The notes: generated by a model from the sequence alone, not told the origin. Shown: positions 2,826 through 24,538, numbered from the stretch's first letter. The stretch is 24,538 nt of DNA from Candidatus Fervidifonticultor secundus (GCA_031459385.1 JAVKIP010000030.1:1-24538), one strand, 5' to 3'. A program made the numbers and translations.

Positions 2826-2853
2826 GCGCCCGGCGAGCACGAGCGAGACCCGG

Positions 2854-3594: not shown

Positions 3595-4802
3595 CGCTCC
3601 GGGACGCAGTGCGCGTCGCGCTGCGCGCGCTGGCGGTGACCCCGCTGCGGTCGCTGCTAACGATGCTGGGCGTGATCATCGGCGTCGGCGCCGTCGTGGC
3701 CATGGTGGCCATCGGTCAGGGGGCGCGCCAAAACGTCGAGCAACAGGTCCAGGCGCTGGGCAGCAACCTCCTGACCGTGTTCGCCGGCACGCAGCGCCTG
3801 GGCGGCGTCGCCCGCGAGGTGCCGGTGCAGACGCTGACGGTGGAGGACGCCGAGGCGATCCTGCGCCAGGTGCCCGGCGTGGTGGGCGTGAGCCCCGAGT
3901 ACGCGGCGCGCGCGCAGGTCACCGCCGGCGCCGCCAACACCAACACCACCGTCACCGGGGTCACCCCGGCGTTCCAGACCGTGCGCACCTTCCAGGTGGC
4001 CCGGGGCGCGTTTATCACCGAGGAGGACCTGCGCGCGCGCGCCAAGGTCGCCGTGTTGGGGCAGACCGTGGCGGGAGGGCTCTTCGGTGACGAAGACCCG
4101 CTGGGCCGGCGCATCAAGATCCGCGGGGTCACGTTCACGGTGATCGGCGTCATGGAGGCCAAGGGCGCCTCGGCGTTCGCGGACCGGGACGACGTGGTGT
4201 TCGTCCCGCTGACGACCGCCCAGCGCCGGCTCTTCGGCGTGACCCACGTGCGCGCGATCCACGTGCAGATGGCCTCGCCGGAGGTAATGGACGACGGCCG
4301 GGCCGCCCTCCTCGCCCTGCTGCGGGCGCGGCACCGGCTGGCGCCCGGCGCGGAGGACGACTTCACGATCCGCAGCCAGGCCGACCTCCTGCAGACGCTC
4401 GGTGGCGTTTCGCAGACCATGACGATGCTGCTGGGGAGCATCGCCGCCGTCTCCCTGGTGGTGGGCGGCATCGGCATCATGAACATCATGCTGGTGTCGG
4501 TGAGCGAGCGCATGCGCGAGATCGGCATCCGCAAGGCGGTGGGCGCGCGGCGCCGCGACATCCTCCTCCAGTTCCTGGTGGAGTCGGTGGCGTTGTCGGT
4601 CACGGGTGGGATCATCGGGCTCGCTGCGGGCGGGCTCGGGTCGGTGCTGATCAGTCGTCTGGCCGGCTGGCCCACGCTGCTCTCGGCGCCGGCGATGCTG
4701 CTGGCGTGTGCATTCGCCGCGGCGGTCGGGATCGGGTTCGGCCTCTACCCCGCGCAGCGCGCTGCGGCCATGGACCCGATCGTCGCGCTGCGCCACGAGT
4801 GA
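3591..4802 (+). CDS. ABC transporter permease, MacB/FtsX family, 403 aa
   Basis: [17 protein letters not shown], large periplasmic domain, [33 protein letters not shown]-terminal [13 protein letters not shown] overlap with the ATPase stop at 3591-3594. Confidence 0.93.
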
Positions 4803-4822
4803 GGAGCATGGGTCTGCCGCGG

Positions 4823-4834
4823 GCGTTCGAACGC
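4823..4834. promoter_or_regulatory. Perfect 12-bp palindrome GCGTTCGAACGC in the permease-tolC spacer; possible operator
   Basis: Seen directly in the 97-bp intergenic gap; function is inference only. Confidence 0.25.
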
Positions 4835-4899
4835 ATGAGTCGGCACGTGAGCGGCGAACCAGGGAGCCCCAGGTCCACGCCGAGGTCGAGGAGGGATCG

Positions 4900-9594: not shown

Positions 9595-10863
9595 CTACTT
9601 CGTCAGGTCCAGCCCCGTAAACGGCGGCCACCGGTAGTAGTCCTTCGGGTCGAACACCTTCAGCTCGCTGACGATCGGGATCGCATAGCGCGGATCGGCC
9701 ACCACGCGCCCCGCCGGCACCGCGTAGACGAACTGGTGGTCCTCGGCGCGGTACGTGCGCAGCCCCGCCGGCGTCTCGATCTGCATGCCCTTGAGGCCCT
9801 CCAGCACCCGGTCGGTCTGGATGCTGCGCGCCTTCTCCACGGCGGCCTTGGTGATGTGGATCGCCGAGTAGGTCACCTCGGCCGAGTAGTTGGGCATGCG
9901 GTTGAAGCGCCGCGCGAACCGGCTGACGAAGGCCCGGTTCATCTCGGTGTTGGGCCAGTTGTGGAGGTAACGGGCCGTGGCGTAGAGCTTGCCGCGGAAG
10001 CGGTTCTCCTTGACCTCCTCGCGGATCCCCTCGAGCACGTCGACCGAGCCGCCCATGGCCTGGAACCAGACCTGGATCCGGTCGAAGACGCCCTGCAGCA
10101 GCGCCTGGCGCAGCAGCGTCACGGCCTCGCCCGCCCACGGGGTCGCGATGATCGCGTCGGGGTTGCGCGCCATCACCGCCGAGATGTGCGCCGAGAAGTC
10201 CAAGGTCAAGAACGGCGCCCAGGCCGCCCCTACGAACTCGACGTCGGGGCGGAAGCGCCGCATCTGGTCCCGGAACAGCGCCCAGGTGGCGTAGCCGTAC
10301 TCGTAGTCGGCGCCGATGGTGGCCCAGCGCCGGATCTCCCGCCGGTCCCGGAAGAGGTGCGCGGCAACGGCGTCCTGGTAGACCGGCACGCTCACCCGGA
10401 CGATCTGCTTGATGCCGCGCTGCGCCACCAGCTCCTCGGTCAGCCGGTGGGTCGCGGCGTGGGTGAAGAACTGGATGCGGTCCAGTTCCTGCAGCACCGG
10501 CCCCAGCGCCATGGCCACGCCGCTGCTGTCGGTGCCGTAGAGGAAGTGGGCGCCGTACTCGGTGACCAGGAACCGCGCGTTCCGCACGCCGGTCGCCGGC
10601 CGGTTCTCGTCGTCCATGAAGCGCATCTCGAGCCGGCAGCCCAGGATGCCGCCGGCGGCGTTGATCTCCTCGATGGCCAGCGTCGCGCCCATTTCGATCT
10701 GCCGGCCGTAGTCGGCGTGGGGCCCCGAGGCCACGCCCTGGATGCCCAGCTTGAGGGCCGGGAGGTCAAGCTGACAGGCTGCGAGTGCCGCGCGGGTCCG
10801 GGGGGGGACCAACAGCACTGCAGCCACCACCATGCACAGCACCAGCAGCAGGCCCCTTCTCAT
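9595..10863 (-). CDS. LIV/HAAT ABC importer substrate-binding protein (type 1 periplasmic binding fold), Sec signal
   Basis: Hydrophobic signal peptide, GATLAIEEINAAGGILG, DYEYG, ETPAGLRTYRAEDHQ; AGGAGG SD upstream on the - strand; first gene of the liv-type operon. Ligand not determinable. Confidence 0.9.
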   Translation of the reverse strand: MRRGLLLVLCMVVAAVLLVPPRTRAALAACQLDLPALKLGIQGVASGPHADYGRQIEMGATLAIEEINAAGGILGCRLEMRFMDDENRPATGVRNARFLVTEYGAHFLYGTDSSGVAMALGPVLQELDRIQFFTHAATHRLTEELVAQRGIKQIVRVSVPVYQDAVAAHLFRDRREIRRWATIGADYEYGYATWALFRDQMRRFRPDVEFVGAAWAPFLTLDFSAHISAVMARNPDAIIATPWAGEAVTLLRQALLQGVFDRIQVWFQAMGGSVDVLEGIREEVKENRFRGKLYATARYLHNWPNTEMNRAFVSRFARRFNRMPNYSAEVTYSAIHITKAAVEKARSIQTDRVLEGLKGMQIETPAGLRTYRAEDHQFVYAVPAGRVVADPRYAIPIVSELKVFDPKDYYRWPPFTGLDLTK

Positions 10864-11043
10864 CCGCCACTCCCCCTCCTATACAGCTACAGCTGGCGCC
10901 GCAGTGCTGGTCGGCCACACGGCGGCACCGGCCAGGATGCGATCTGCGCAGCGCACACCTCACCATGTGCCGACGGCAGGGGATTCTCTGGTCCCCGGGC
11001 TCCTCTCCTGCCGGTTCGGTCGTAGGCAGGCCCGGGGTTCGGC

Positions 11044-11073
11044 TTGACACGGTGGGACAGGCTAGTGTAAATG
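11044..11073 (+). promoter_or_regulatory. Candidate sigma70-type promoter for the tetR-catabolic operon
   Basis: Perfect -35 TTGACA at 11044-11049; AT-rich but imperfect -10 candidates 17-18 nt downstream (GTAAAT/TAAATG, 11067-11073); lies in a locally AT-rich patch. Confidence 0.55.
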
Positions 11074-11074
11074 T

Positions 11075-11117
11075 CTAACGAACGATAGGTAGAAGTTGGC
11101 TACCGGTCGTTCGTTGG
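11075..11117. promoter_or_regulatory. Double operator: 18-bp inverted repeat, each arm containing a PaaR-like pseudopalindrome
   Basis: CTAACGAACGATAGGTAG (11075-11092) and the reverse complement of 11100-11117 (CCAACGAACGACCGGTAG) match at 15/18 with a 7-bp spacer; immediately downstream of the -10 and upstream of the TetR gene. Confidence 0.7.
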
Positions 11118-11130
11118 GGGACATCAGTCC

Positions 11131-11817
11131 GTGGAGTTCAGGGTGGCCGTTCCCGTGAAGGAACCCCGGGGTGACACGCGGCAGCGGCTGCTCACTGTGG
11201 CCGCGCACCTGTTTCGCACCAAGGGGTACGCAGCGACCAGTACCCGCGAGATCGCCCGGCACCTGCGGATACAGACGGCTTCGCTCTACCACTATATTCG
11301 CAGCAAGGACCAGCTGCTGTTTGAGATTGCGCGGCAGGGGCTCGAGGAACTGGAGGCAGAGGTCCGCCCCATCGTCTTCTCCGCGCTGCCACCCCTGGAG
11401 AAACTGCGCCGGTTCATCGAGACTCACGTGACGATCATCCTGCGCTACCGCGACAAGCACGCGGTCATGCTGGCGGAACTCAACGCCCTCCCGGCTAGGT
11501 CCCGGCGGGCGGTCGTCGCACTGCGGGACCGGTACGAAGGCCTGGTCGCGCGGGTGCTGGAAGAGGGGCAGGCGGCCGGGGTGGTCCGCGCCGACCTCCC
11601 GGTGCGGTATCTGCGACTGGCCCTTCTGAATCTCCTCAACTGGTCCATCTTCTGGTTTCGGCCGGACGGCCCGCTGGCCCCTGACGAGGTGGGCCGTATG
11701 CTGTCCAGCGTGTTCATCGACGGTGTGGCCGTCGGTGCCTCTCGGCCGGGAGGAGGAGGAGGACTGCGGGGAAGGGCTGCCCGGGGCAGTGACGGGACGC
11801 CTGCCCCGGGCGGGTGA
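11131..11817 (+). CDS. TetR/AcrR-family transcriptional repressor, PaaR/KstR2-like
   Basis: HTH AAHLFRTKGYAATSTREIARHLRIQTASLYHYIRSKDQLL; C-terminal RDRYEGLVARVLEEG...LLNWSIFWFRPDGPL typical of the PaaR/KstR2 subgroup. Start uncertain (GTG 11131, 11143 or 11155). Confidence 0.9.
   Translation: MEFRVAVPVKEPRGDTRQRLLTVAAHLFRTKGYAATSTREIARHLRIQTASLYHYIRSKDQLLFEIARQGLEELEAEVRPIVFSALPPLEKLRRFIETHVTIILRYRDKHAVMLAELNALPARSRRAVVALRDRYEGLVARVLEEGQAAGVVRADLPVRYLRLALLNLLNWSIFWFRPDGPLAPDEVGRMLSSVFIDGVAVGASRPGGGGGLRGRAARGSDGTPAPGG
11779..11811 (+). other. Perfect 11-bp stem hairpin inside the low-complexity 3' tail of tetR
   Basis: GCCCGGGGCAG-N11-CTGCCCCGGGC. Confidence 0.4.
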
Positions 11818-11826
11818 GCCAACACA

Positions 11827-11855
11827 GTCACACTGCCGGCCAGGCCGGCTGTGAC
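11827..11855 (+). other. Intergenic hairpin between tetR and the M24 gene
   Basis: GTCACA-ct-GCCGGC-cag-GCCGGC-TGTGAC, a 12-bp stem with a 2-nt bulge. Confidence 0.4.
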
Positions 11856-11886
11856 CGGTGCACACGGAGGCGGGAGGTGGACACAA

Positions 11887-13212
11887 GTGGTTGAGCTAAA
11901 ACCGCACACGTCGAGTATCGAGTTCGAGTGGCCAATGGTGGCGTTGCCCGTGCGCCAGTACGCCACGTCCACGATGAACTGGGGCAGCTACACCGTGGAC
12001 CTGACGCGGATGCGGACGCACCGGTTGCGCCGTATCAAAGAGCAGCTCCAGCGGGCTGAGATCGGTGCCATTCTGACCATCAACGAGTGGAACATCCAGT
12101 ACCTGACCGCTACCACGGTGCCGTACTGGACGACGCCTGGCTCCGGCCTGCGGTACGCCCTGTATTGCACCACGCTGAACGAAGCCATCATGTACGAGCA
12201 AGGGGATATCGGCTATCATACCCGGACATCCTGTCCCTGGTTGCACAAGGTCAAGGTGGCTATGACCGGCGCCGGGTGGATCGGGCGCACCATGGGTCCC
12301 AATTACTTCCGGGTCCAGACCGACAAGTTGGTGCAGCAGGTGATGCTCGATATGCGGGATGCGGGGCTGCACCCGCAACGGGACGTGCTGGCGCTGGACA
12401 CCTACGACCCGGTGCTGATCGAGGCGTTCCAACGGGCGGGCGTCAAGGTTAACCCTGAAGGCGGCCAGCTGATGCTGGAGGCGCGCAAGATCAAGAACCA
12501 GGACGAAGTGGAGTGCATCCGCGTCGCGTGCGCTATCGGCGACGCCATGTTCGAGGCCTTGCGGGATAATCTGCGGCCCGGGGTGCGGGAGAGTGAGCTG
12601 GTGGGGGTCATGCACAAACGGTGCTATGAGCTGGGCGGGCGCATCTACTCCGGTGTGTTCGTCACCTCGGGACCGGTAGCGTGGCCGAATCCGCGCGACG
12701 AGAGCGATCGCATCATCCAGCCCGGCGATGTGGTCTATTCCGACGTCTACAACACGTCGTTCATGGGCTACAAGATCTGCTACTACCGCACGTTCAGCTG
12801 TGGGAGGGCGTCGCGGGAGGCCCGGGACGACTACGCCACCGCGCTGGAGTGGTTGTACAAAGCCATCGACAGGATCAAGCCCGGCGTGACCACCCGGGAG
12901 CTGGCGGAACAGTGGCCGCCGGGCCCCGAGGTGTGGAAGGACATCCATGTCTACTACGAAGACCAGACAGCGGGGAACAACTGGGGCCACGGCATCGGCC
13001 TGACGCTCTACGAGCCGCCGATCATCTGGCGGGAGGCGTCCCTGAACGATCCGGTCCCCATCGAGGAAGGCATGGTGTTCGCCGTCGAGACACAGCACGG
13101 GCGGCCAGGGAAACACGGGGTACGCATCGAGGAGATGGTGCGCGTGACCAGCACCGGTGCGGAAGTCCTGAGCCGGTGGCCGGTGCAGGAGGTCATGGAG
13201 GTGGCGGTGTAA
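11887..13212 (+). CDS. M24-family (Xaa-Pro peptidase/creatinase fold) enzyme with atypical active site, 441 aa
   Basis: Creatinase-like N-domain, ARKIKNQDEVECIR, PGVRESE, DRIIQPGDVVYSD, GYKICYYRTF, IKPGVT, GHGIGL, EGMVFAVE, GVRIEEMVRVT. Start re-called to GTG 11887 behind GGAGGTGG. Confidence 0.88.
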   Translation: MVELKPHTSSIEFEWPMVALPVRQYATSTMNWGSYTVDLTRMRTHRLRRIKEQLQRAEIGAILTINEWNIQYLTATTVPYWTTPGSGLRYALYCTTLNEAIMYEQGDIGYHTRTSCPWLHKVKVAMTGAGWIGRTMGPNYFRVQTDKLVQQVMLDMRDAGLHPQRDVLALDTYDPVLIEAFQRAGVKVNPEGGQLMLEARKIKNQDEVECIRVACAIGDAMFEALRDNLRPGVRESELVGVMHKRCYELGGRIYSGVFVTSGPVAWPNPRDESDRIIQPGDVVYSDVYNTSFMGYKICYYRTFSCGRASREARDDYATALEWLYKAIDRIKPGVTTRELAEQWPPGPEVWKDIHVYYEDQTAGNNWGHGIGLTLYEPPIIWREASLNDPVPIEEGMVFAVETQHGRPGKHGVRIEEMVRVTSTGAEVLSRWPVQEVMEVAV

Positions 13213-13266
13213 ACGTTGGTGCGCCGGGGCCGGAGGCTGTGGGCTTCGGGCAGGCGCGGTGGCGGG

Positions 13267-14133
13267 ATGAAGCCGGCGGCGTTCGAGTATCTTCAGCCAA
13301 CCACGCGGGCAGAAGTGCTGGAGGTCCTCCACCAGTTCTCGGCATCTGCCAAGGTGCTGGCGGGCGGGCAGAGTCTGGTTCCGCTGATGAACCTGCGGCT
13401 CGCACGGCCTGCCGTCGTGGTGGACATCAACCGGATCGGCGACTTGGCGTACCTGAGGCGCGAGGACGGCGCGCTCGTTCTCGGGGCGCTGGTTCGCCAC
13501 CGGCAGCTTGAGCGTGATCCGGCGGTGGGTAGTGCGTGCCCCATCCTGCAGGAAGCCGCGCGGCACATCGGGTACCCGGCGGTCCGCAACCGCGGTACTG
13601 TGGGCGGGAGTGTGGCCCATGCCGACCCGGCTGCGGAGCTCCCGTGTGTCCTGCTGGCCGCCGGCGCGACCGTGGTGGTGGAGTCGCGCAGCGGTCGACG
13701 GGCGATTCCCATCGATCGGTTCTTCGTCGGGCCTTACACCACCCAGTTGCGGGCCGACGAACTCCTGGTGGAAGTGCGGGTCCCGGCCGTGGAGCCGGAC
13801 GACGCCTGGGGCTTCGCCGAGTTCGCGCGCCACGACGGGGGATTTGCCCTGGCGCTGGCGGCGTGTGTGATGCGGCGCGACCCGGAGGGGCGGGTGGAGA
13901 CGGCGCGGGTGGCCGTGGGCGGCGTGACCGCGACGCCCGAACGCTTGGTGGGCGCCGAAGAGACCCTGCGGGGGCAGCGACTCACGGACGGTACGATCGA
14001 TCGCGCGGCGGAGCACGCAGCGGCGCTGGCGGCCCATGACGACATTCACGCCACGGCCACCTACCGCCGGCGCTTGGCCCGGTGGCTGGTCCGGGAGGTG
14101 CTCCGCCGCGCGGCGGGGTCCCGGGCCGCATGA
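13267..14133 (+). CDS. Xanthine dehydrogenase-family FAD-binding (medium, CoxM/CutM-like) subunit, 288 aa
   Basis: MKPAAFEY start, KVLAGGQSLVPLMNLRLARP, AVRNRGTVGGSVAHADPAAE, DDIHATATYRR. Confidence 0.93.
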   Translation: MKPAAFEYLQPTTRAEVLEVLHQFSASAKVLAGGQSLVPLMNLRLARPAVVVDINRIGDLAYLRREDGALVLGALVRHRQLERDPAVGSACPILQEAARHIGYPAVRNRGTVGGSVAHADPAAELPCVLLAAGATVVVESRSGRRAIPIDRFFVGPYTTQLRADELLVEVRVPAVEPDDAWGFAEFARHDGGFALALAACVMRRDPEGRVETARVAVGGVTATPERLVGAEETLRGQRLTDGTIDRAAEHAAALAAHDDIHATATYRRRLARWLVREVLRRAAGSRAA

Positions 14134-14630
14134 GCACCGTATCCATCGCCTTCCGCGTGAACGGCATCGACCACCGCCTGTCCATAGAGCCCAGGCGGCT
14201 GCTGGCGGACGTGCTGCGGCACGATCTGGGGCTCACCGGAACCCACGTGGGGTGCGAACAGGGCGTGTGCGGAGCCTGTACCGTGCTGCTGGATGGAGAG
14301 CTGGTACGCGCCTGCCTGCTGTTCGCCGTCCAGGCTGATGGGTGCGAGGTGACCACCATCGAAGGCCTGAGCACGGCGGGCGCGCTGCATCCGATCCAGC
14401 AGGCGTTTATCGAAGAGTTCGGGTTCCAGTGCGGATTCTGCACCCCCGGCATGATCCTGGCCGCCTACCGACTGCTCCGGGAGGTGGCGCGGCCCACGCC
14501 GGACGAGATCCGGCGTGGACTGTCTGGGCACCTCTGCCGCTGCACGGGGTACGCAGACATCGTCCAATCGGTCCAGCGGGCATCGGCGCTGGTGCAGGCA
14601 GCGAGCGAAGGAGCCCACCGTGGGCGGTGA
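14130..14630 (+). CDS. Xanthine dehydrogenase-family 2x[2Fe-2S] (small, CoxS/CutS-like) subunit, 166 aa
   Basis: GCEQGVCGACTV...C and QCGFCTPG...LCRCTGY motifs; ATGA overlap with the FAD subunit. Confidence 0.95.
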   Translation: MSTVSIAFRVNGIDHRLSIEPRRLLADVLRHDLGLTGTHVGCEQGVCGACTVLLDGELVRACLLFAVQADGCEVTTIEGLSTAGALHPIQQAFIEEFGFQCGFCTPGMILAAYRLLREVARPTPDEIRRGLSGHLCRCTGYADIVQSVQRASALVQAASEGAHRGR

Positions 14631-16974
14631 CGACCGCACGGGATCGTACGTGGGTCACCGGATCGCCCGGTGGAGTGACCGCCGCTTCGTGGAGGGCCGC
14701 GCGCGATATCTCGACGACCTGTCGATGCCGGGACAGGCGGAGGTGGCGTTCGTGCGGAGCCTTTACGGCCACGCCCGGCTGCGGCGCGTCGACGTCAGCG
14801 CGGCGCGCCGGCACCCCGACGCCCTCGGCGTGTACTGCTGGGAGGACCTGCAGGCGCTGCTCACCCCGTTCTGGACCATGCCGCGGGGGCCGATTCGCCG
14901 GGCCGCGGTGACGCCGCTGGCCAGCGACAAGGTCCGGTGGGTGGGGGAGCCGGTGGCGGTGGTTGTGGCGCAGGACCGGTACCGGGCCGAGGACGTGGCT
15001 GAGCTGGTGGAGGTGGACTACGAGCCCCTGCCTGCGGTGGTCGACACCCTGGCAGCGATGCAGCCCGACAGCCCTCGGCTGTACGACCAGTGGCCTGACA
15101 ATGTGGTGCTGCACCAGACCTTTCAGGCGGGCGATCCGGATGCGCTGCTGGGGCAGGCGCCGGTGGTGGTGCGCAAGCGGTTCCGGAGCAACCGGCACAC
15201 CGCCGTGCCCCTGGAGGGGCGCGGGATCCTGGCTGCCTGGGATCCCCTCGAGGAGACCCTGACAGTCTGGATCGGGCATCAGGACGTCCACCTGGTCCGG
15301 GCGGTGCTGGCAGACGTGCTCCAGGTCCCCCTGGGGCGGATCCGCGTCGTCAGTCCGGACGTGGGTGGCGCGTTCGGCATCAAGCTGCCGGTCTATCCCG
15401 AAGAAATGGTGGTTTGCGCCCTGAGCCGCCTGCTCCGCCGGCCTGTGAAGTGGGTGCAGGATCGACGGGAGAGCCTGCTGGGGGACACCCACGCGCGGGA
15501 GGCGGTGGTCGACGTCGAGGCGGCCTTCAGCCGCGAGGGGCGGCTCCAGGCGGTGCGCGCGCACATCGTGAGCGACGCTGGCGCCTACGCGGTGGCGGGG
15601 CGCGGCCCCACCATCGAGGGCACCATGCTGGCGCGGGAGCTTCCCGGGCCGTACGAGCTGCAGCACTACGCGTACACGCTGGACGTGGTCATGACCAACA
15701 AGGCGCCGGTGGCCGTGTACCGCGGCGTCGCCATTCCGGTGAGTACCTTTGTCATGGAACGTGTGATGGACTTCGCAGCCGACGCCCTGGGGCTGGACCC
15801 CGTGGATATCCGGCGGCGTAACCTGATCCGGACGTTCCCCTATACCACCGTCACCGGCCACATCTACGACGACGGGCAGTACCTGGCATCGCTGGAGCAG
15901 GCCGTGGCACTCAGCGACTACCACCGGTGGCGCCAGGAGCAGGCCGAACTCCGGGCACAGGGGCGGTACATCGGCATCGGTGTGTGCTGTCTTGTGGATG
16001 CTACGGCCCGAGGAGGCGGGTTTTACGGCCGGCTGGGTCTGAAAGCGGCTACCCAGGAGGGCTGCATCCTCCGCATCGACCCCACCGGCGGGATCACCGC
16101 CGCGTTCGGGACCACCACCCAGGGGCAGGGGTTGCACACGGCCCTGGCGCAGGTCGTGGCCACGGCGCTCGGCGTGCCCCTGGATCGGGTAGACGTGGTC
16201 ATGGGAGATACGGCCACCACGCCCTACGGCGGCGGGGCATGGGCCAGTCGCGGTGCCGTCGCCGGTGGGACCGTGGCCCTGCTGGCCGCGCGGAGCCTAC
16301 GCGAGAAGGTGCAGCGGATCGCCGCACACCTCCTGGAGGCCCGCCCCGAGGACGTCGAGCTGGCAGACGGGAGGGTCTACGTCCGCGGGGCGCCCGGGCG
16401 CTCGCTGACCCTGGCGGAGGTGGCGCATACGGCCTACTTCGTGGCTGCCGACCTTCCACCGGGCACGGAGCCGGGGCTGGAGGTCATGGTCCACTGGGAG
16501 CCGGAGATTCCGGCCACATTTGCCCACGCGACGCAAGTCATGGTGGTGGAGGTTCACCCCGCCACCGGCGCCGTCACCATCCTGCGGTACTTGGTGGTGG
16601 AAGACTGCGGACGCATCATCAACCCGGGTCTCGTGGACGGCCAGCTCCGCGGCGGGATCGTCCAGGGGCTCGGAGGGGCGATGTACGAAGAGATCGTATA
16701 CGATGCCCACGCGCAGCCCCTGACGACCACACTCATGGACTACGTGCTGCCTGGCATCTGGGAAGCCCCCGAGGTGGAGATCCACCACCTAGAGACGCCG
16801 TCGACCCGCAACCCCGGAGGCTTTCGTGGGATGGCCGAGTCGGGGACGGCAGGGGTCCCTGCCGTGCTGGCCGGCGCGGTAGCCGACGCCCTGAAGCCCT
16901 GGGGGGTGGAGATTACCGAGCTCCCCCTGAGCCCGGCCCGGCTGGGGGATGGACTGGGAGACCGTGCGCGCTGA
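14620..16974 (+). CDS. Xanthine dehydrogenase-family molybdopterin-binding (large, CoxL/CutL-like) subunit, 784 aa
   Basis: RFVEGRARYLDD, VPLEGRG, DVGGAFGIK, active-site loop VYRGVAI, QGQGLHT, EDCGRIINP...GQLRGG, RGMAESG (catalytic Glu). GTG 14620 behind AAGGAG, overlapping the small subunit by 11 nt. Confidence 0.93.
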   Translation: MGGDDRTGSYVGHRIARWSDRRFVEGRARYLDDLSMPGQAEVAFVRSLYGHARLRRVDVSAARRHPDALGVYCWEDLQALLTPFWTMPRGPIRRAAVTPLASDKVRWVGEPVAVVVAQDRYRAEDVAELVEVDYEPLPAVVDTLAAMQPDSPRLYDQWPDNVVLHQTFQAGDPDALLGQAPVVVRKRFRSNRHTAVPLEGRGILAAWDPLEETLTVWIGHQDVHLVRAVLADVLQVPLGRIRVVSPDVGGAFGIKLPVYPEEMVVCALSRLLRRPVKWVQDRRESLLGDTHAREAVVDVEAAFSREGRLQAVRAHIVSDAGAYAVAGRGPTIEGTMLARELPGPYELQHYAYTLDVVMTNKAPVAVYRGVAIPVSTFVMERVMDFAADALGLDPVDIRRRNLIRTFPYTTVTGHIYDDGQYLASLEQAVALSDYHRWRQEQAELRAQGRYIGIGVCCLVDATARGGGFYGRLGLKAATQEGCILRIDPTGGITAAFGTTTQGQGLHTALAQVVATALGVPLDRVDVVMGDTATTPYGGGAWASRGAVAGGTVALLAARSLREKVQRIAAHLLEARPEDVELADGRVYVRGAPGRSLTLAEVAHTAYFVAADLPPGTEPGLEVMVHWEPEIPATFAHATQVMVVEVHPATGAVTILRYLVVEDCGRIINPGLVDGQLRGGIVQGLGGAMYEEIVYDAHAQPLTTTLMDYVLPGIWEAPEVEIHHLETPSTRNPGGFRGMAESGTAGVPAVLAGAVADALKPWGVEITELPLSPARLGDGLGDRAR

Positions 16975-17018
16975 ACGTGCAGCGTACACAAACAGCCACA
17001 GCACAGGGGGTGGTGGGA

Positions 17019-18248
17019 ATGGGTGGGATGACGCGGCGGAAGTTCCTGGCGAGCGCGGCGGCGGGTGGCGCCGCCCTGGTGGTTCCCGACGTCCTGCGGG
17101 CCGCGGTGTACGCTGCCCCGCGGGAGCCGATCCGCGTCGGGTTCCCGGCACCCCTGACGGGGGCATTCGCCGACGAGGCCAACTACATGGTGCAGGGCGC
17201 GACCCTGGCCGTGGAGGAGTTCAACCGCGCAGGCGGCGTCCTCGGGCGCCCCGTGGAGCTGCTGGTGCGGGACGACCGGTTGAGCCCAGACGAAGGTGCC
17301 CGCCGCACGCTGGAGCTCATTGAGCGCGAGCGTGTGCACTTCCTCGCCGGCGTCCTGTCGGCGGCAGTGCAGCTGGCAGTCAACGAGCAGGCCAAGCGGC
17401 ACCGGAAGATCTTCGTCTCCACCAGCCAGTCGGACAAGATCGTGATGCCGCCTGACTTCGGCCCGTGGACGTTCCACGAGGCGCTGACCCCGACCATGAC
17501 GTCCACGGCCCTGGCCCAGTACGTCCTGCGAGAAGGGCGCGGCCGGCGGGTCTACATTCTCTATGCCGACTACGCGTACGGGCAGGAGCACACGGCGGCG
17601 TGGCGGCGGGTCGTATCCGCGACGGGCGCGGCGCTGGCCGGCGTCGACCCCCATCCCCTGGGCACCACGGACTACTCCGCCTACTTCCCCAAGATCGTGG
17701 CAGCGCGGGCGGACCTGCTGGTGCTGAACAACTTCGGGCGGGACATCGTGAACTCGGCCAAGCAGGCCGTGGAGCTGGGGCTCAAGCGGCGGATGCAGCT
17801 GGCCGTGCCCATCATTCCCACCTCGGCCGCCTTGGAAGCCGGACCGGAGGTGCTGGAAGACGTGCTGTGCGCGTCCAGTTTCTGGTGGGAGGTCCAGGAC
17901 CGGATCCCCAAGGCCAAGGAGTTCAATACCAAGTTCAGCCAGCGGTTCAACCGGGTACCGTCCGACTACGCCGCCTACGGCTACAGCGGCGTGCGCGAGC
18001 TGCTGGAAGCCGCCGAGCGCGCGCGGAGCACGGAGAGTGACGCGGTGGCCAAGGCTTTGGAGGGACGGCGCTACGCGCACTACAAGGACGGGCAGTACTG
18101 GCGCCAGTGCGACCACCAGTCGATCCAGTCCATCTTCCTGCTGAAGGGGCGCGGCGTCCCCAGGGGGTCGTACGGGCTGTTTGACGTGGTGGCGACGGTG
18201 GACGGGGAGCGCGTGACCCCCAGCTGCGAAGCGCTCGGTCACCGCTGA
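17019..18248 (+). CDS. LIV/HAAT ABC importer substrate-binding protein with twin-arginine (Tat) signal, about 409 aa
   Basis: MTRRKFLASAAAGGAALV fits S/T-R-R-x-F-L; GATLAVEEFNRAGGVLGRPVELLVRDD, ADYAYG, WRQCDHQ. Start ATG 17019 or 17028. Confidence 0.9.
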   Translation: MGGMTRRKFLASAAAGGAALVVPDVLRAAVYAAPREPIRVGFPAPLTGAFADEANYMVQGATLAVEEFNRAGGVLGRPVELLVRDDRLSPDEGARRTLELIERERVHFLAGVLSAAVQLAVNEQAKRHRKIFVSTSQSDKIVMPPDFGPWTFHEALTPTMTSTALAQYVLREGRGRRVYILYADYAYGQEHTAAWRRVVSATGAALAGVDPHPLGTTDYSAYFPKIVAARADLLVLNNFGRDIVNSAKQAVELGLKRRMQLAVPIIPTSAALEAGPEVLEDVLCASSFWWEVQDRIPKAKEFNTKFSQRFNRVPSDYAAYGYSGVRELLEAAERARSTESDAVAKALEGRRYAHYKDGQYWRQCDHQSIQSIFLLKGRGVPRGSYGLFDVVATVDGERVTPSCEALGHR

Positions 18249-18287
18249 CCTCGTGCCGTGGTCGTGAACCTCGTGCTGCGGTCATGA
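18248..18287 (+). repeat. Imperfect 20-bp tandem duplication filling the SBP-permease spacer
   Basis: ACCTCGTGCCGTGGTCGTGA (18248-18267) and ACCTCGTGCTGCGGTCATGA (18268-18287), 17/20 identical; the second copy contains the livH-type ATG. Confidence 0.75.
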
Positions 18288-19147
18288 GTGTCGAAGGGCT
18301 GCTGCTCCAGCTCATGACCGGCATCGTCGTGGGCGCCATTTGGGTCATCGTCGCCCTGGGCCTATCACTGATCTTCGGGATCCTGCGCATCGTTAACTTC
18401 GCCCACGGCGCCTTCTACATGCTGGGGGCCTACCTGGCCGCCTTGGCGGTGGGCTGGACGGGCAGTTTCTGGATGGCCCTCCTCCTGGCGCCGGCAGCCA
18501 TGGCGGCCTTCGGCCTGGTGGCGCAGTCCGGGCTGATCCGTCCCCTGTACCAGCGGGGGCTCGTCTACAGCGTGCTGATCACGTACGCCGTCTCCCTGGT
18601 GATCATCGAAGGCGTGAAGATGCTGTGGGGGACGGTAGGGCCACAGTACCGCATCCCGCGGGAGCTGGCCGGAATGGTCACGCTGGGGTTTGTCGTTTTC
18701 CCCAAATATCGGCTGTTCGTGCTGGCGGCGACGGGACTGACGGTGCTGGGGCTGTGGTGGCTACTGCACCGCACCTCCACCGGGCTGTTCATCCGTGCGG
18801 CGAGCCAGGATCCGCTGATGACGCAGGCGCTGGGGGTCGACATCTCCCGGGTCCTGGCCGTGGCTTTTGCCCTGGGCGTGGCCCTGGCAGGCCTCGGGGG
18901 AGCTCTAGCAGGCCCTCTCCGGGGGGTCTTTCCGGAGATGGGGCTGGACATCTTGGTCGAGTCGTTCGTGGTAGTGGTCATCGGCGGCATGGGGAGCCTG
19001 ACCGGTGCCGCAGTGGCCGGGTTACTGGTGGGGATCGTCCAGAGTTTTACGTTCCTGTGGGCTCCGTTGTTTGCCCATGTGGTGCTGTTCCTGTTGATGA
19101 TCGCCACCCTGTTGGTGCGGCCGCACGGCCTCCTGGGGACGGAGTGA
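18284..19147 (+). CDS. livH: LIV/HAAT ABC importer permease, LivH type
   Basis: ALGLSLIFGILRIVNFAHGAFYMLGAY, RTSTGLFIRA, FVVVVIGGMGS, LLVRPHGLLG. Confidence 0.92.
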   Translation: MSVEGLLLQLMTGIVVGAIWVIVALGLSLIFGILRIVNFAHGAFYMLGAYLAALAVGWTGSFWMALLLAPAAMAAFGLVAQSGLIRPLYQRGLVYSVLITYAVSLVIIEGVKMLWGTVGPQYRIPRELAGMVTLGFVVFPKYRLFVLAATGLTVLGLWWLLHRTSTGLFIRAASQDPLMTQALGVDISRVLAVAFALGVALAGLGGALAGPLRGVFPEMGLDILVESFVVVVIGGMGSLTGAAVAGLLVGIVQSFTFLWAPLFAHVVLFLLMIATLLVRPHGLLGTE

Positions 19148-19150
19148 CCG

Positions 19151-20166
19151 ATGCGCGCAGAGCTGGAGGCACGGTGGGATCTGAGCGTCCGGCGGAAGTG
19201 GCGCCAGGGAGCCCTGGCCACTGTGACGCTGCTGGCCCTGCTCCTGGCCCTGCCCCTGGCGTTGCCGTACGAAGCCCTGGCCACGCAGGTGCTGGTCTAC
19301 GCCCTTTTCAGCCTGGGCTACAACCTGCTGTTCGGCTACACGGGGCTGTTGTCGTTTGGGCATGCTGCCTTTTTCGGACTAGGAAGCTACAGCGCGGCGC
19401 TACTGGCGCGGCACGTCACGGCCAACGTCGCCCTGACCCTGCCGGCGGCTGTGCTCGTGGCCGCCGCCATGGGTGCCGTCATCGGGTTCTTCTGCCTGCG
19501 CCGCCGGGGCGACTACTTCTCGCTGATGACGCTGGCGTTCGGGCAGTTGCTGTACTTCGTCGCCCACCAGTGGCGCACGGTTACCGGCGGCGACGACGGC
19601 CTGCGGGGTATTCCGCTGCCCTCGGTGGCCATCGGCGGGTGGGCGGTCGACCTTACGACCTCCGTGGCCACCTACGCCTTGGTGGCCGTCCTGACGTTCG
19701 CCGCCTTCCTGGCGTTCCGGCGGCTGCTGGCGTCCCCCTTCGGTACCGCCCTGCAAGCCATTCGCGAGAACGAGCTGCGGGCGGAAGCCGTGGGCTACGA
19801 CACGTTCCGCCTGAAGCTGTGGGCATTCGTGCTCTCGGCTGGCATGAGCGGCGCTGCCGGCGCCCTGAACGTCTACCTCTTGAAGTTCGTCGGCCTCAAC
19901 AGTTTGCACTGGATCACCTCAGGCTACGTGGTGCTCATCACCATCCTCGGCGGTACAGGAACTCTCTACGGCCCCCTGGTGGGCGCGCTGGCCTTCGTCG
20001 GGCTGCAGGACGCCCTCAGTGGCGTCCCCGCCATCATGGATCGGTGGCCGTTCTTCGTCGGCCTGTTGTTCATTCTGTGCGTGTGGACCTTCCCGGAAGG
20101 CATTTGGGGAACCGCCCAGCGGGTCTACGCCCGCCTGCGCATCGCAAGCCCGGCGGGAGGCGAGCC

Positions 20167-20170
<4 letters not shown>
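19151..20170 (+). CDS. livM: LIV/HAAT ABC importer permease, LivM type
   Basis: GYNLLFGYTGLLSFGHAAFFG, YFSLMTLAF, TGGDDGL, SPFGTALQAIRENE, LGGTGTLYGP, PEGIWG. Confidence 0.92.
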
Positions 20171-20915
<745 letters not shown>

Positions 20916-20919
<4 letters not shown>

Positions 20920-21638
20920 CCGGCGAGATCCTGGTGCTCGAGGACCTGCACACCTACTACGGGAAGAGCCACGTGCTTCAGGGGGTCTCCTTCGGAGTCG
21001 GCAGAGGAGAGTTCGTGGCGCTGGTGGGCCGGAACGGCGTGGGGAAATCGACGATTCTCAAAACCGTCATGGGGGTGACGCCGCCCCGGGCCGGCCGGGT
21101 CCTGCTGGAGGGGCGGGAGATCACCGGCAGGCCACCCCATGAGGTATCGCGGGCAGGCATCGCCTGGGTGCCCGAAGACCGGCGGGTGTTGCCCCACCTG
21201 ACCGTGCTGGAGAACCTCCAGATCTCGCTGCACGGTGCGGGGGTGGGGCGGCACGAGGGGCAGGAGCGGTTGCAGGATGCGTTCGCGCTGTTCCCGCAGC
21301 TGCGGGAACGCCAGCACCAGAAGGGGCGGACGCTATCGGGCGGCGAGCAGCAGATGCTGGCCCTGGCCAGGGCCCTGGTGGTGCGCCCGAAGATCATGCT
21401 GGTCGACGAACCGACGCAGGGGTTGATGCCCAAGCTCGTGGCGGCCCTGGTGCAGGTGCTGTGCGAAATCCACTCGCGGGGAGTGACTGTCGTCCTGGTC
21501 GAGCAGATGGTGACAGTGGCGCTGGAGCTGGCCCGACGCATATACGTCATCGACCACGGGGTCGTCCGCCTGTCTACTACGCCTGACGGCATCCGGCAGG
21601 ATCCCGGCCTGATGCAGGCGCTCTTGGGCGTGTCGTAG
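20916..21638 (+). CDS. livF: LIV/HAAT ABC importer ATP-binding subunit, LivF type, 240 aa
   Basis: YYGKSHVL, GRNGVGKST, WVPEDRR, LSGGEQQML, LVDEPTQGL, VEQ; GTGA overlap at 20916-20919. Confidence 0.92.
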
Positions 21639-21647
21639 GAGGGACCG

Positions 21648-22412
21648 ATGGGACTCGCAGATACGGACTATCAGGATCACGTGGTGGTCGAGCTGCTGGG
21701 GAAACGGGTGCACGTGCTGGACCTCTCGCGCGAGATCGGGCCGGGCATCCCCGTCTACCCCGGGCACATGCGCGTGGCCACGTGGTGGCACCTGACCCAT
21801 GAAGACGTGAGGCGCTTGCGCCTGCCGCCCGACTCACCGTTCGGGGGGTATGGCGTGTTCGGCATTGCCATGTGCGACCACGTTTCCACCCACCTTGACG
21901 CGGTGTTCCACTTTGACGCCCGTCGGGCAGAGAAGTCCATCGACCGGGTGCCGCTAACGCAGCTCATCACCCCCGGGGTGTGGATCGACGTGAGCTGGGT
22001 GCCGCCGCGGCAGCATATCCGGCTGGCGGACGTGCAACGGGCGCTCCAGGAGGCGGGCACCCGCCTGCGGCCCGGGGTGACGTTGCTGTACCACACGGGC
22101 GCCGCGCGGTACTGGCGCGAGCCCTATCGCTTCCTCACGGAGTACCCCGGTCTCGACGAAGAAGCCAGTCGGTGGATTCTCGACCACGGCGTCGTGAACG
22201 TGTGCACCGATGCTCCTAGCACGGACAACCCTGCGGACCTCACCTATCCCAACCACAGGCTCCACGGAGAGCGCCAGGTGATCCACACGGAGATCGTGAA
22301 CAACATCGACAGGATTCCGCGCCACGACGGCTTCTACGTCATGTGCCTGCCTCTTCGTTTCGTGGGCCTGTCGGGCTCTCCGGTGCGGGCGCTGGCGCTG
22401 TGGGAGGAGTAG
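21648..22412 (+). CDS. Cyclase-family metal-dependent hydrolase (kynurenine formamidase/isatin hydrolase-like)
   Basis: DLS...PVYPG, HVSTHLDAVFH (variant of HxGTHxDxPxH), YPGL, TDAPSTD, H...E, GSPVRALA; AGGAGG SD. Confidence 0.88.
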   Translation: MGLADTDYQDHVVVELLGKRVHVLDLSREIGPGIPVYPGHMRVATWWHLTHEDVRRLRLPPDSPFGGYGVFGIAMCDHVSTHLDAVFHFDARRAEKSIDRVPLTQLITPGVWIDVSWVPPRQHIRLADVQRALQEAGTRLRPGVTLLYHTGAARYWREPYRFLTEYPGLDEEASRWILDHGVVNVCTDAPSTDNPADLTYPNHRLHGERQVIHTEIVNNIDRIPRHDGFYVMCLPLRFVGLSGSPVRALALWEE

Positions 22413-22454
22413 CCGGGCGGGCGCAGTGAGGACGACACGTTGGGGGTGATGCGC

Positions 22455-22640
22455 ATGCCGCTCATTCGGGTCACGTCTTTTCCGCAGGAGAAGGAGGCAC
22501 GCGCCGAGCTGGCTCAAGCCATCACTGACGTCGTGCATCGGGTGACGAAGATCCCCCGGGAAAGCATCTGGGTCATCTTCGAGCCCGTGCCCCATGAGAA
22601 CTGGTCGGTGGGAGGCGTCTTGGTATCGGAGAGACGGTAG
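22455..22640 (+). CDS. Tautomerase-superfamily protein (4-oxalocrotonate tautomerase-like, beta-alpha-beta), 61 aa
   Basis: Start re-called to ATG 22455 giving M-P-L-I (catalytic Pro-1); ELAQAITDVV...IWVIFE...ENWSVGG pattern and size match the family. Confidence 0.85.
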   Translation: MPLIRVTSFPQEKEARAELAQAITDVVHRVTKIPRESIWVIFEPVPHENWSVGGVLVSERR

Positions 22641-22651
22641 TCGGACCGCGT

Positions 22652-23416
22652 GTGGGCGGGCAGCGGTTCTCCCTGGCGGATCGGACGGCCCTGGTCACCG
22701 GCGGCAGCCGTGGCCTCGGCGAGGCCATCGCCGTGGGGCTGGCCGAGGCCGGGGCGGACGTGGCGGTGGCCGCGCGCAGCCGACCGGACCTGGAGCGCGT
22801 CGCGTCCCGCATCGGTGCCTGTGGCCGCCGTGCGGCTGTGGTGGAGGCGGACGTCACCCGGGTGGAGGACGCGCGGCGGATGGTGGAAGAGACCGAGGCG
22901 GCTTTGGGCCCGCTGCACATCCTGGTGAACAACGCGGGCGTCAACATTCCGCGCCTGGCGGTGGAGGTCACGGAAGAAGAGTGGGACCGGGTGGTGGACA
23001 CGAACCTGAAAGGTGTCTTCTTCTGCGCCCAGGCAGCGGGCCGGCGCATGGTCCAGCGGCGCTACGGCCGGATCGTGAACGTCGCGTCGCAGATGGGCCT
23101 GGTGGGCTTCTACTTCCGCGCGGCGTACTGCGCCAGCAAGGCGGGCGTGGTGAATCTGACCCGGGTCCTGGCGGTGGAATGGGCGCCACACGGCGTGACG
23201 GTGAACGCGGTGGCACCCACGTTTGTCGAGACGCCCATGACCCGCGAGATGCTGCAGGACCCGTGGTTTCGCGACGAGGTGTTTCGCCGGATCCCGGCAG
23301 GGCGGCTGGCTGACGCCCAGGATGTGGTCAGCGCCGTCGTCTACCTAGCGTCCGATGCGGCAACAATGGTGACAGGCCACACGCTACTGGTCGACGGCGG
23401 CTGGGTGGCATGGTAG
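22652..23416 (+). CDS. Classical SDR oxidoreductase, gluconate 5-dehydrogenase/KduD/HpsO-like, probably NADP(H)
   Basis: TGGSRGLG, AARS (basic residues, no Asp), NNAG, S...YCASK, VAPTFVETP, VTGHTLLVDGGW. Confidence 0.9.
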   Translation: MGGQRFSLADRTALVTGGSRGLGEAIAVGLAEAGADVAVAARSRPDLERVASRIGACGRRAAVVEADVTRVEDARRMVEETEAALGPLHILVNNAGVNIPRLAVEVTEEEWDRVVDTNLKGVFFCAQAAGRRMVQRRYGRIVNVASQMGLVGFYFRAAYCASKAGVVNLTRVLAVEWAPHGVTVNAVAPTFVETPMTREMLQDPWFRDEVFRRIPAGRLADAQDVVSAVVYLASDAATMVTGHTLLVDGGWVAW

Positions 23417-23433
23417 CAGGGAAGGAGGCCGAG

Positions 23434-24538
23434 GTGCGGGAGTACCTCAAGCGCGCGTCGCCCCAGCCCGCAGTAGACCGGCGGGCGGTGGAGGAGACGG
23501 TGCGTGGCATTCTGGAACATGTGCGCCGCGAGGGAGATGCGGCGGTGCGGGAGTACTCGCGCCGTTACGACCGCTGGGATCCACCCCGGTTCCGGGTGAT
23601 GCCCGATGAGGTGGAGCGGGCACGGCAGGCGTTGCCGCCGGCTCTCATAGACGACATCGCCTTCACCGCCCACCAGGTCCGTGAGTTCGCGCGCTGTCAA
23701 CTCGACACGCTCCGCCCGCTGGAGGTAGAGATGCGACCCGGTGTGGTCCTCGGACACCGGCACATCCCCGTGGCATCGGTGGGGTGCTACGTGCCCGGAG
23801 GCCGGTACCCGCTGATCGCCTCGGCGCTGATGAGCATCGCGACGCCCAAGGTGGCAGGGGTGGAACGCGTGGTGGCGTGCGCGCCTCCCCGCGGGGAGGG
23901 AATCTACCCGGCGACGCTGGTGGCGATGGCGGTCGCGGGCGCGGATGAGATCTACTGCCTGGGCGGCGTGCAGGCGCTGGCGGCCATGGCGTACGGCACC
24001 GCGGAGATCTCGCCGGTGGACATGATCGTGGGGCCGGGCAACCAGTACGTCGTGGAGGCCAAACGGCAGCTGTTCGGCGTGGTCGGGGTGGACCTGCTGG
24101 CGGGCCCCACGGAGATCCTGGTTATCGCTGACCACACGGCCGATCCGCACGTGGTGGCGGCAGACCTCCTGGGCCAGGCGGAGCACGATCCGGCCTCCCC
24201 TGCGGTACTGGTAACCACCAGCCGGGAGCTGGGGACGCGGGTGCTGGCCGAAATCGCGCAGCTGTTGCCCACTCTGCCCACGGCCGAGGTGATCGGGATC
24301 AGCTGGCGCGACCGGGGGGAGGTCGTTGTGGTCGATTCAGACGACGAGGCAGCAGCCGTCGCCGACGAGTACGCTCCCGAGCACCTAGAGGTGCAGACCC
24401 GCAACCCCGACTGGTACCTGCAGCGGCTCCGCAACTACGGCACGCTGTTTCTCGGCGAAGAGTCGACGGTCGTTTACTCCGACAAGGCTGTCGGGACCAA
24501 TCACATCTTACCCACCGGGCGGGCCGCGCGGTTCACCG
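23434..24538 (+). CDS. Histidinol dehydrogenase (HisD)-family protein, HpsN-like paralogue; 3'-truncated by the window end
   Basis: Not in the ORF track; translated by eye from GTG 23434 (AAGGAGG at 23422-23428): MREYLKRAS...GCYVPGGRYPLIAS...GGVQALAAMAYG...GPGNQYVVEAK...AGPTE...GQAEH...APEHL...SDKAVGTNHILPTG; open to the last base. Confidence 0.92.
   Translation, partial: MREYLKRASPQPAVDRRAVEETVRGILEHVRREGDAAVREYSRRYDRWDPPRFRVMPDEVERARQALPPALIDDIAFTAHQVREFARCQLDTLRPLEVEMRPGVVLGHRHIPVASVGCYVPGGRYPLIASALMSIATPKVAGVERVVACAPPRGEGIYPATLVAMAVAGADEIYCLGGVQALAAMAYGTAEISPVDMIVGPGNQYVVEAKRQLFGVVGVDLLAGPTEILVIADHTADPHVVAADLLGQAEHDPASPAVLVTTSRELGTRVLAEIAQLLPTLPTAEVIGISWRDRGEVVVVDSDDEAAAVADEYAPEHLEVQTRNPDWYLQRLRNYGTLFLGEESTVVYSDKAVGTNHILPTGRAARFT

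Follow-up and report, generated by a model that had tools for sequence, protein, structure and literature searches.

Introduction

N-heteroarenes, which derive from vitamins, alkaloids, heated biomass and pollutants, have few known degradation routes. The nearest characterized gene arrangement is that of the pAO1 lower nicotine pathway of Paenarthrobacter nicotinovorans (kdhC-Dabb-pkc-dhpH-nit), where a molybdenum (Mo) hydroxylase, a cyclase of the PF04199 family and the monooxygenase DhpH are encoded in one operon (kdhC-cyclase-dhpH); we group with it HpoH/HpoI of the 2-hydroxypyridine pathway of Rhodococcus rhodochrous PY11 as the closest known system. The pAO1 cyclase is hypothesized, in the available parts of the sources (PMC6214936, PMC9304392), to open 2,3,6-trihydroxypyridine, and even in this nicotine model, the opening of rings by hydrolases of the cyclase family remains a hypothesis. 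Another described route, the Trudgill furoate pathway (hmfABCDE), consists of a CoA ligase, a Mo dehydrogenase, tautomerization and lactone hydrolysis (available text of PMC3223595). Here, we analyze a catabolic gene cassette of Candidatus Fervidifonticultor secundus (GCA_031459385.1, JAVKIP010000030.1:1-24538); the window is this whole stretch of 24,538 nucleotides, which forms contig C24 of a 3.3-Mb genome in 59 contigs. The cassette is genuine and appears to be an undescribed variant of heteroarene catabolism by Mo hydroxylase and cyclase, and several of its enzymes belong to orphan clades. With a probability of roughly 45%, it may encode an undescribed pathway that imports a pyridine-type N-heteroarene and degrades it hydrolytically, carried as an inserted, modular unit.

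Like the pAO1 arrangement, the cassette combines a Mo hydroxylase of this clade with a PF04199 cyclase in one operon, putative in the case of the cassette, and relatives of the cassette in another genus (termed g19 here) have a DhpH-type monooxygenase alongside, as pAO1 does. In contrast to pAO1, it carries neither the nicotine upper-pathway genes nor an omega-amidase or nitrilase, and it adds a HisD-like enzyme, a tautomerase, a short-chain dehydrogenase/reductase (SDR), an M24 enzyme and a Liv-type ABC importer. KdhC and PKC are 34% and 28% identical to their cassette counterparts, and DhpH is 37% identical to the g19 enzyme. As identities reach only 28-37%, the cassette works like the pAO1 arrangement at best and is not a member of that pathway. 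No characterized pathway matches at high identity, these values being the best, which upholds the view of a first-pass annotation of this DNA that the cluster is apparently undescribed. With hmfABCDE, the cassette would share the general scheme of CoA ligase, Mo hydroxylase, tautomerization and hydrolysis, a PaaK-like gene following it; however, its Pfam content includes no HmfE with metallo-beta-lactamase (MBL) fold, the ligase is resident, and its cyclase, HisD-like and M24 genes are not part of hmf. A pterin/lumazine pathway was rejected, as this requires an isomerase and a prenylated FMN decarboxylase (according to the available part of PMC12391406). Among the papers listed for isonicotinate, none was relevant, and no description of the enzyme combination was found in the literature searched, with subscription journals and supplements outside coverage. 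A term search of the main text of the Sysuimicrobiota paper (PMC11604079) found neither 'pyridine' nor 'aromatic'.

Results

A tightly spaced catabolic gene block extends beyond the contig end

From position 11131 to the end of the contig, 14 intact open reading frames follow each other on the plus strand, spaced by -11 to +69 bp; the occurrence of terminator-like sites is at chance level. Pfam assigned them, in gene order, to TetR_N with TetR_C_24, Peptidase_M24, CoxM/CoxS/CoxL-type Mo enzyme subunits, Peripla_BP_6, two BPD_transp_2, two ABC_tran, Cyclase, Tautomerase, adh_short and Histidinol_dh, which confirmed the gene number, families and close spacing given by the first-pass annotation. 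Among the matches listed, those that passed an NCBIfam cut-off were to the HisD domain model and to broad models of SDR subfamilies only. The features are as follows.

11010..24538, plus strand, continuing across a 13-nt gap to about C59:123220: inserted cassette of ~13.7 kb, left junction approximate
11044..11073, plus strand: candidate promoter with a perfect -35 TTGACA at 11044-11049, no consensus -10
11075..11115, no strand assigned: putative operator, two 14-bp PaaR-type pseudopalindromic boxes CNAACGNNCGTTNG starting at 11075 and 11100, one mismatch each
11131..11817, plus strand: TetR repressor, TetR_C_24, PfmR/KstR2-like (Pfam, PDB search)
11887..13212, plus strand: DddP-like M24 (pita-bread) enzyme with ligands D/C/H/E/E, 'CYYRT' subfamily (Pfam, NCBIfam, alignment, fold match)
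13267..14133, plus strand: Mo-hydroxylase FAD subunit, CoxM-type (Pfam, NCBIfam)
14130..14630, plus strand: Mo-hydroxylase 2Fe-2S subunit, CoxS-type (Pfam, NCBIfam)
14620..16974, plus strand: Mo-hydroxylase large subunit, QorL/CoxL/Kdh clade (loop YRGVA, PDB search)
17019..18248, plus strand: Liv-type substrate-binding protein (SBP) with twin-arginine signal TRRKFL (Pfam, sequence)
18284..21638, plus strand: LivH, LivM, LivG and LivF, ABC permeases and ATPases (Pfam)
21648..22412, plus strand: Cyclase-family (PF04199) metallohydrolase, metal ligands kept, variant motif
22455..22640, plus strand: 4-OT/DmpI-like tautomerase, Pro-1 kept if the start is the ATG at 22455
22652..23416, plus strand: SDR dehydrogenase/reductase (Pfam, NCBIfam)
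23410..24538, plus strand: HpsN-sister HisD-fold dehydrogenase (GRYPL, DK...TNH), truncated at the contig end, last ~47 residues on C59
6199..10863, minus strand: divergent Liv-type ABC importer of the resident locus, belonging with the paaK-like and HpaB/AbfD-like genes on C59

The block as first described is truncated, and the putative operon runs on into contig C59. The genes past 24538 were retrieved there: the missing HisD tail lies at the end of C59, and in three of four hot-spring runs, contigs join C24 to C59 across 13 nt, keeping the HisD frame. These runs belong to one hot-spring study, which may be the source of the genome, and they establish linkage rather than independent occurrence. 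After HisD, a PaaK-like CoA ligase gene and then an HpaB/AbfD-family gene follow on the same strand, both scoring below equivalog cut-offs. The ligase and the PaaR-type operator constitute a CoA-dependent side that had been missed in the first description.

A 12-gene core and looser sets recur in other genomes

The phylum, which we take to be CSP1-3/Sysuimicrobiota, was represented by 94 genomes (93 besides that of the host), all assigned to one order. A 12-gene core reaching from CoxM to HisD occurs in syntenic order, with identities of 64-89%, in G042, in G045 and, across two contigs, in G090. These three are the only core carriers among the 93 other genomes, and they form one genus (g19) of another family. 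Their core copies come without TetR or M24 and without PaaR-type boxes upstream; the gene in front of them encodes a CoA-acylating aldehyde dehydrogenase of the methylmalonate-semialdehyde dehydrogenase (MMSDH) type, which passes TIGR01722. Downstream of the core are genes for a VOC protein, an FAD monooxygenase, a second VOC protein, a flavin reductase and a luciferase-like monooxygenase (LLM) family oxygenase, the G045 contig ending in the flavin reductase gene. VOC and monooxygenase genes follow the core in all three genomes, and the best PDB match of the g19 FAD monooxygenase is 2,6-dihydroxypyridine hydroxylase (E = 2e-71).

Looser sets were found at greater distance. The cluster of Haloarcula sp. 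JP-L23 consists of genes for M24, SDR, CoxM, CoxG, amidohydrolase, cyclase, HisD and CoxS, continued by CoxL, SDR, 2-hydroxyacid dehydrogenase, SDR, VOC, a DhpH-like FAD monooxygenase and MMSDH; identities to the window are 35% for the cyclase, 49% for HisD, 32% for CoxL and 30% for M24. A region of ~27 kb in G305, an unrelated bacterium from a 301-genome sample, contains M24, 2-hydroxyacid dehydrogenase and SDR genes together with a cyclase (55%), a HisD-like enzyme (63%), CoxL (36%), a DhpH-like monooxygenase (48%) and a Liv importer. G094 has M24, 2-hydroxyacid dehydrogenase, amidohydrolase, SDR and HisD-like (57%) genes in a row, and a 59% cyclase on a separate contig. The co-occurrence of the enzyme combination, including in an archaeon, is real, and the gene-neighborhood check thus showed it to recur both as the g19 core and as the looser sets of Haloarcula sp. 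JP-L23 and G305. Two aspects of the first-pass annotation were not supported in the form given. It had treated the 14 genes as a single unit, whereas the conserved core has 12 genes, and TetR and the M24 subfamily of the window mostly travel with a PaaK-like ligase or other neighbors. It had also proposed an oxygenase-independent route, whereas g19, Haloarcula and G305 carry a DhpH-like FAD monooxygenase; the host is without it, and an HpaB/AbfD-family gene follows the cassette there.

The cassette was inserted into a resident locus and has a PaaR-type operator

In G002, a genome of the same genus in four contigs, the counterpart of the left flank ends with the divergent SBP gene and the paaK-like gene lies ~140 bp further on, which represents the empty site, and G019 shows the same. 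By eye, the intergenic likeness to G002 stops near 11010. The GC content at third codon positions (GC3) is 0.80-0.91 in cassette genes versus 0.94-0.97 in three flanking genes. Both the empty sites and the reduced GC3 identify the cassette as an insertion. PaaK-like, HpaB-like and divergent ABC importer genes recur together in other families and therefore constitute a resident module. The cassette illustrates how a pathway can be assembled via insertion into a resident acyl-CoA locus.

Upstream of the block, the TTGACA hexamer and an inverted repeat (arms 11077-11092 and 11100-11115, 88% complementary) are present as first described, but a consensus -10 is absent: a sigma-70 consensus scan of 10800-24538 returned no site, and no good -10 lies 16-18 nt from TTGACA. 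The promoter is thus plausible, yet not a consensus match. The best PDB match of the TetR protein is 3VPR, which we take to be Thermus PfmR, and KstR2 is among the next (E = 1e-19). The similarity of the cassette to systems with PaaR/PfmR/KstR2-type repressors extends to the TetR_C_24 domain and to operator boxes that match the PaaR consensus, whereas paaABCDE genes are not found near it. The motif CNAACGNNCGTTNG is the Thermus PaaR consensus (PMC6651687, available part). Single boxes of the same quality occur 70 times genome-wide; only two pairs lie within 60 bp of each other, and the other pair is self-overlapping, so that the cassette operator is the sole non-overlapping box pair of this kind in the genome. 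The repressor likely senses acyl-CoA. Its 64% orthologue in G039 precedes paaK-like and SBP genes.

Several enzymes depart from their family prototypes

The first-pass annotation had pointed to deviations at diagnostic positions, and these were found in the M24 enzyme (Cys298), the HisD-like enzyme (GRYPL) and the cyclase (HVSTHLDAVFH). The large subunit of the Mo enzyme matched CO dehydrogenase (PDB 8UEM, 535 bits) and quinoline 2-oxidoreductase (1T3Q, 532 bits) almost equally, with Kdh next, and remained below every NCBIfam cut-off. Form I aerobic CO dehydrogenases have a Cu-binding Cys loop, AYXCSFR. The corresponding loop here, VYRGVAIP, is without this Cys, and the form I assignment was rejected on the missing Cu-Cys loop and a score of 570 bits versus a cut-off of 991. 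M-S-L layout, YRG loop and catalytic Glu (ESG) are all as in QorL/Kdh-type enzymes.

In the cyclase, the metal ligands of the HxGTHxDxPxH type are retained (HVSTHLDAVFH, PNH, TEI), while the Gly and Pro positions are changed relative to HTGTHFDAPAH of isatin hydrolase; the protein scores below the KynB equivalog cut-off. Related cyclases were found in 12 genomes of the 301-genome sample, which is from another phylum. Seven of the 11 further loci in this sample have the order VOC-CoxMSL-cyclase, six with an SDR gene in between, and are probably kin; the Mo enzyme is absent from three of the 11. Among the further plasmid matches of the cyclase examined, five were without the core; Halomarina PSR21 has cyclase, Mo enzyme and MMSDH together. 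As an observation in its own right, loci L245, L246, L249 and L252 share a conserved VOC-CoxMSL-SDR-cyclase operon, followed, by eye, by an apparent acyl-CoA synthetase and an Fe-alcohol dehydrogenase/transhydrogenase. With regard to the tautomerase start, the copy in a relative begins with ATG-CCT behind a ribosome-binding site.

The HisD paralogue is closer to HpsN (366 bits; structures PDB 8V35 and 8WWE) than to HisD (266 bits). HpsN and cysteinolate dehydrogenase are its closest solved relatives and share its catalytic and Zn residues, the HpsN-equivalent residues Gln248/His251, Glu318/His319 and Asp352/Lys353 being kept (APEHLE, GQAEHD, YSDKAVGTNH). His126 in the HpsN motif G-R-Y-A/S-H is described as the sulfonate-recognizing residue (PMC11382572, available part); the cassette enzyme differs in having GRYPL, with Leu at this position, and its gene has no hps, cuy or suy neighbors. 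Both characterized HpsN-type substrates chelate zinc by a 2-hydroxy or 2-amino group, according to the part of the literature available, and we infer that the cassette enzyme uses a diol or amino alcohol of the same kind that is not a sulfonate. Biosynthetic HisD was rejected for this gene, as the his operon on C12 contains a hisD of its own and the cassette enzyme has SDK instead of GDY...NH. In a tree of 18 rows of selected matches, with HpsN itself not included, it falls with plasmid and G094/G097 homologues into a DK clade (98/97 support, 8-row group) apart from his-operon enzymes. Matches at 46-52% in the phylum belong to a separate GDY clade, one of them in a his operon, and were not taken as evidence of co-occurrence. 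The plasmid HisD-like matches examined (4 of 189 records) sit in LacI/SnoaL, DeoR-SDR or Fe-alcohol dehydrogenase/MMSDH contexts. Separately, the host's his-operon hisD (G000:C12, L039:9152-10477) has a very long branch and ANYAIG for GDY...NH, yet the his operon is otherwise complete.

The metal site of the M24 enzyme retains Asp286, the His and both Glu ligands, and the second Asp ligand is replaced by Cys298, a Cys that is invariant at this position in an 8-row subfamily alignment. DddP is the best NCBIfam model (91.6 bits versus a cut-off of 600) and also the top fold match of the predicted structure (pLDDT, a confidence score, 69; TM score 0.71-0.73; 21-22% identity). The enzyme is probably not a peptidase. 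It shares its fold with DddP and other non-peptidase M24 proteins such as creatinase and DoeA/EutD, but has neither the D/D/H/E/E metal site nor the equivalog score of DddP. Sixty relatives contained paralogues at 35-39% or weaker and no close orthologue, a representatives search returned few clusters above 50% identity, and the ESM Atlas only generic M24 clusters. Close orthologues (53-72%) were found in four GTDB loci and in six of 80 metagenome loci. Around these ten loci, a PaaK-like gene at 63-65% occurs in two, the cassette SBP clade at 45-52% in two, a cyclase (35%) with an SDR (57%) and a tungsten aldehyde:ferredoxin oxidoreductase (AOR) in one, and AbfD-like and acyl-CoA synthetase genes in one. 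The AOR gene stands beside a cyclase-SBP-M24 set of a deltaproteobacterium, where a frameshifted SBP duplicate (L034:1041-2091) is located upstream of AOR and the intact SBP copy. Two of the four GTDB genomes also carry HisD-like genes (56-61%); in G097, the HisD-like gene (61%) adjoins a Mo enzyme ~40 kb from M24, and a second Mo enzyme lies ~13 kb from M24.

The plasmid M24 matches examined (Paenarthrobacter sad region, Haloferax pHV4) were rejected as members of a broader subfamily that share no core gene except SDR. On the Paenarthrobacter sp. R1 plasmid (L035:9591-12993), such a broad-subfamily M24 gene is accompanied by RidA, NAD(P) oxidoreductase and SDR genes beside sulfonamide-degradation genes, and its product may act on the heterocycle released from the sulfonamide. 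A second 'CYYRT' M24 of the host (G000:C1:389831-391036; L037, L038) has 35% identity, and similar-scoring matches exist in 36 of 60 relatives. Its gene is flanked by 2-oxoacid dehydrogenase E1/E2-like genes, with a 3-hydroxyisobutyrate dehydrogenase-like gene close by, and the protein represents a widespread orphan subfamily.

The clade of the cassette SBP occurs in eight plasmid records, and in all three examined it adjoins a Mo enzyme gene, a DhpH-like monooxygenase gene or both. No close relative with a bound ligand was found for the SBP in a PDB search (best E = 1.6e-36).

Discussion

The block is a real catabolic cluster, and its substrate most likely belongs to the N-heterocycles, as the first-pass annotation had suggested. 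On the basis of the gene families, synteny, insertion and operator boxes observed, we propose the following steps, all of them conditional. The Liv-type ABC system would import the compound, and the QorL/Kdh-clade Mo enzyme would add water-derived oxygen beside the ring nitrogen. In most relatives, the DhpH-like monooxygenase would add a further hydroxyl, an enzyme that the host is without. The cyclase-family hydrolase may then open the resulting lactam-like ring at the C-N bond, and the open chain or side chain could be processed by the tautomerase, the SDR and the HisD-fold enzyme, the last of which would oxidize a zinc-chelating, non-sulfonate 1,2-diol or 2-amino alcohol to the acid. M24 may remove an amide or amidine nitrogen. 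Acyl-CoA from the adjacent PaaK-like ligase would release TetR from the PaaR-type boxes. In favor of this reading are the closeness of CoxL to quinoline 2-oxidoreductase and Kdh and its missing CO dehydrogenase Cys, the synteny of the core in g19 with the DhpH-like gene behind it, the sets of Haloarcula and G305, the VOC-CoxMSL-cyclase loci, the neighbors of the SBP clade and the pAO1 operon.

Several points weigh against such a pyridine-type pathway. No DhpH-like monooxygenase gene was found in the host genome. This genome is rich in paralogues, with 13 CoxL, 11 M24 and 23 SDR tblastn rows, so that such genes can come together loosely in catabolic islands. Relatives of the cyclase and of the HisD-like enzyme often sit in unrelated gene contexts. 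The active-site loops of CoxL differ among the co-located Mo enzymes, which are perhaps not orthologous, and the M24 proteins of Haloarcula, G094 and G305 belong to another subfamily with D/D/H/E/E ligands, 30-31% identical to that of the window. Within the flanks available, of which four of ten are shorter than 4 kb, none of the ten close M24 orthologue loci has a HisD-like or CoxL gene. Identities to KdhC and PKC are low, and the role of the pAO1 cyclase is only hypothesized.

Somewhat unlikely, and the foremost of the alternatives, is a patchwork in which TetR and M24, as parts of a resident acyl-CoA pathway together with the PaaK-like, HpaB/AbfD-like and divergent importer genes, were fused to a 12-gene core acquired from a g19-like donor and would have a promoter, but no pathway, in common with it. 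The three g19 copies, lacking TetR and M24 behind the MMSDH-type gene, fit this idea, as do the PaaR type of the operator, the TetR orthologue before paaK-like and SBP genes in G039 and the M24 orthologues near PaaK in two of ten loci and beside AbfD-like and acyl-CoA synthetase genes in another. However, M24 orthologues also occur with the SBP clade of the cassette in two of the ten loci and with cyclase and SDR in one, half of the four GTDB genomes with an M24 orthologue have HisD-like genes, and three other lineages again have M24-fold genes next to HisD-like ones.

An improbable alternative is a furoate-like CoA route, in which an aldehyde, or a heteroaryl carboxylate of the furan, thiophene or pyrrole type, would undergo PaaK-like activation, Mo hydroxylation or oxidation, tautomerization and hydrolysis, following the logic of the Trudgill pathway (PMC3223595, as far as available). 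The PaaK-like gene after the cassette, the tungsten AOR in the deltaproteobacterium and a furoate-like plasmid cluster with a 42% CoxL agree with it, but the PaaK-like gene belongs to the resident locus and was missing from g19 (none of three at the search threshold), no HmfE-like MBL hydrolase is encoded in the cassette, C-N bonds are the target of cyclase-family enzymes and the DhpH-like neighbors point to hydroxypyridine. Quite improbable is, finally, a pyrimidine-type ring that Mo hydroxylation and ring opening would convert to a three-carbon semialdehyde and MMSDH to acetyl- or propionyl-CoA: a CoA-acylating MMSDH gene adjoins the core in g19 and is also found in Haloarcula and Halomarina (50-54%), and g19 additionally has an LLM monooxygenase and a flavin reductase, as used in the Rut pathway, but MMSDH and LLM are not in the host cassette, homologues of barbiturase and of ureidoacrylate amidohydrolase were not observed, and the characterized substrate of a DhpH-like enzyme, to our knowledge the sole one, is a pyridine.

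For the pyridine-type N-heteroarene pathway preferred here, a broader version would be an undescribed N-heterocycle pathway common to bacteria and haloarchaea, of which the host version would have shed the O2-dependent DhpH-like step and come under acyl-CoA control, so that the ring could be degraded without oxygen. We regard this as unlikely; if true, it would provide the first substrates for three orphan groups, namely the HpsN sister clade without His126, the DddP-like M24 enzymes with a Cys ligand and the ring-opening cyclase clade. As it comes from a thermophile, comprises 12-16 genes and has a Tat-exported SBP, a defined operator and cross-domain counterparts, the cassette offers a tractable way to one ligand, and this one ligand could explain several large families that are mis-annotated as 'hisD', 'Xaa-Pro peptidase' or 'cyclase'. 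Catabolic clusters of the orphan kind are frequent, and as long as it has no substrate, the cassette is a good lead rather than a discovery.

Additional observations

Elsewhere in the host genome, a 68% paralogue of the HpaB/AbfD-like gene lies at G000:C1:281571-296248 beside genes for a CaiC-like CoA ligase, an FAD oxidoreductase, a corrinoid protein and an MtmB-like methyltransferase (by eye), which is possibly a methylamine or betaine demethylation locus. In the remaining part of the window, positions 1359-6168 encode an RND-type membrane-fusion protein, an ABC exporter (ATPase and permease) and a TolC-like outer-membrane protein, an ordinary efflux/export set. Positions 17-1271 contain, by eye, a 3-hydroxybutyrate dehydrogenase-like SDR gene followed by one for a MaoC-type dehydratase.

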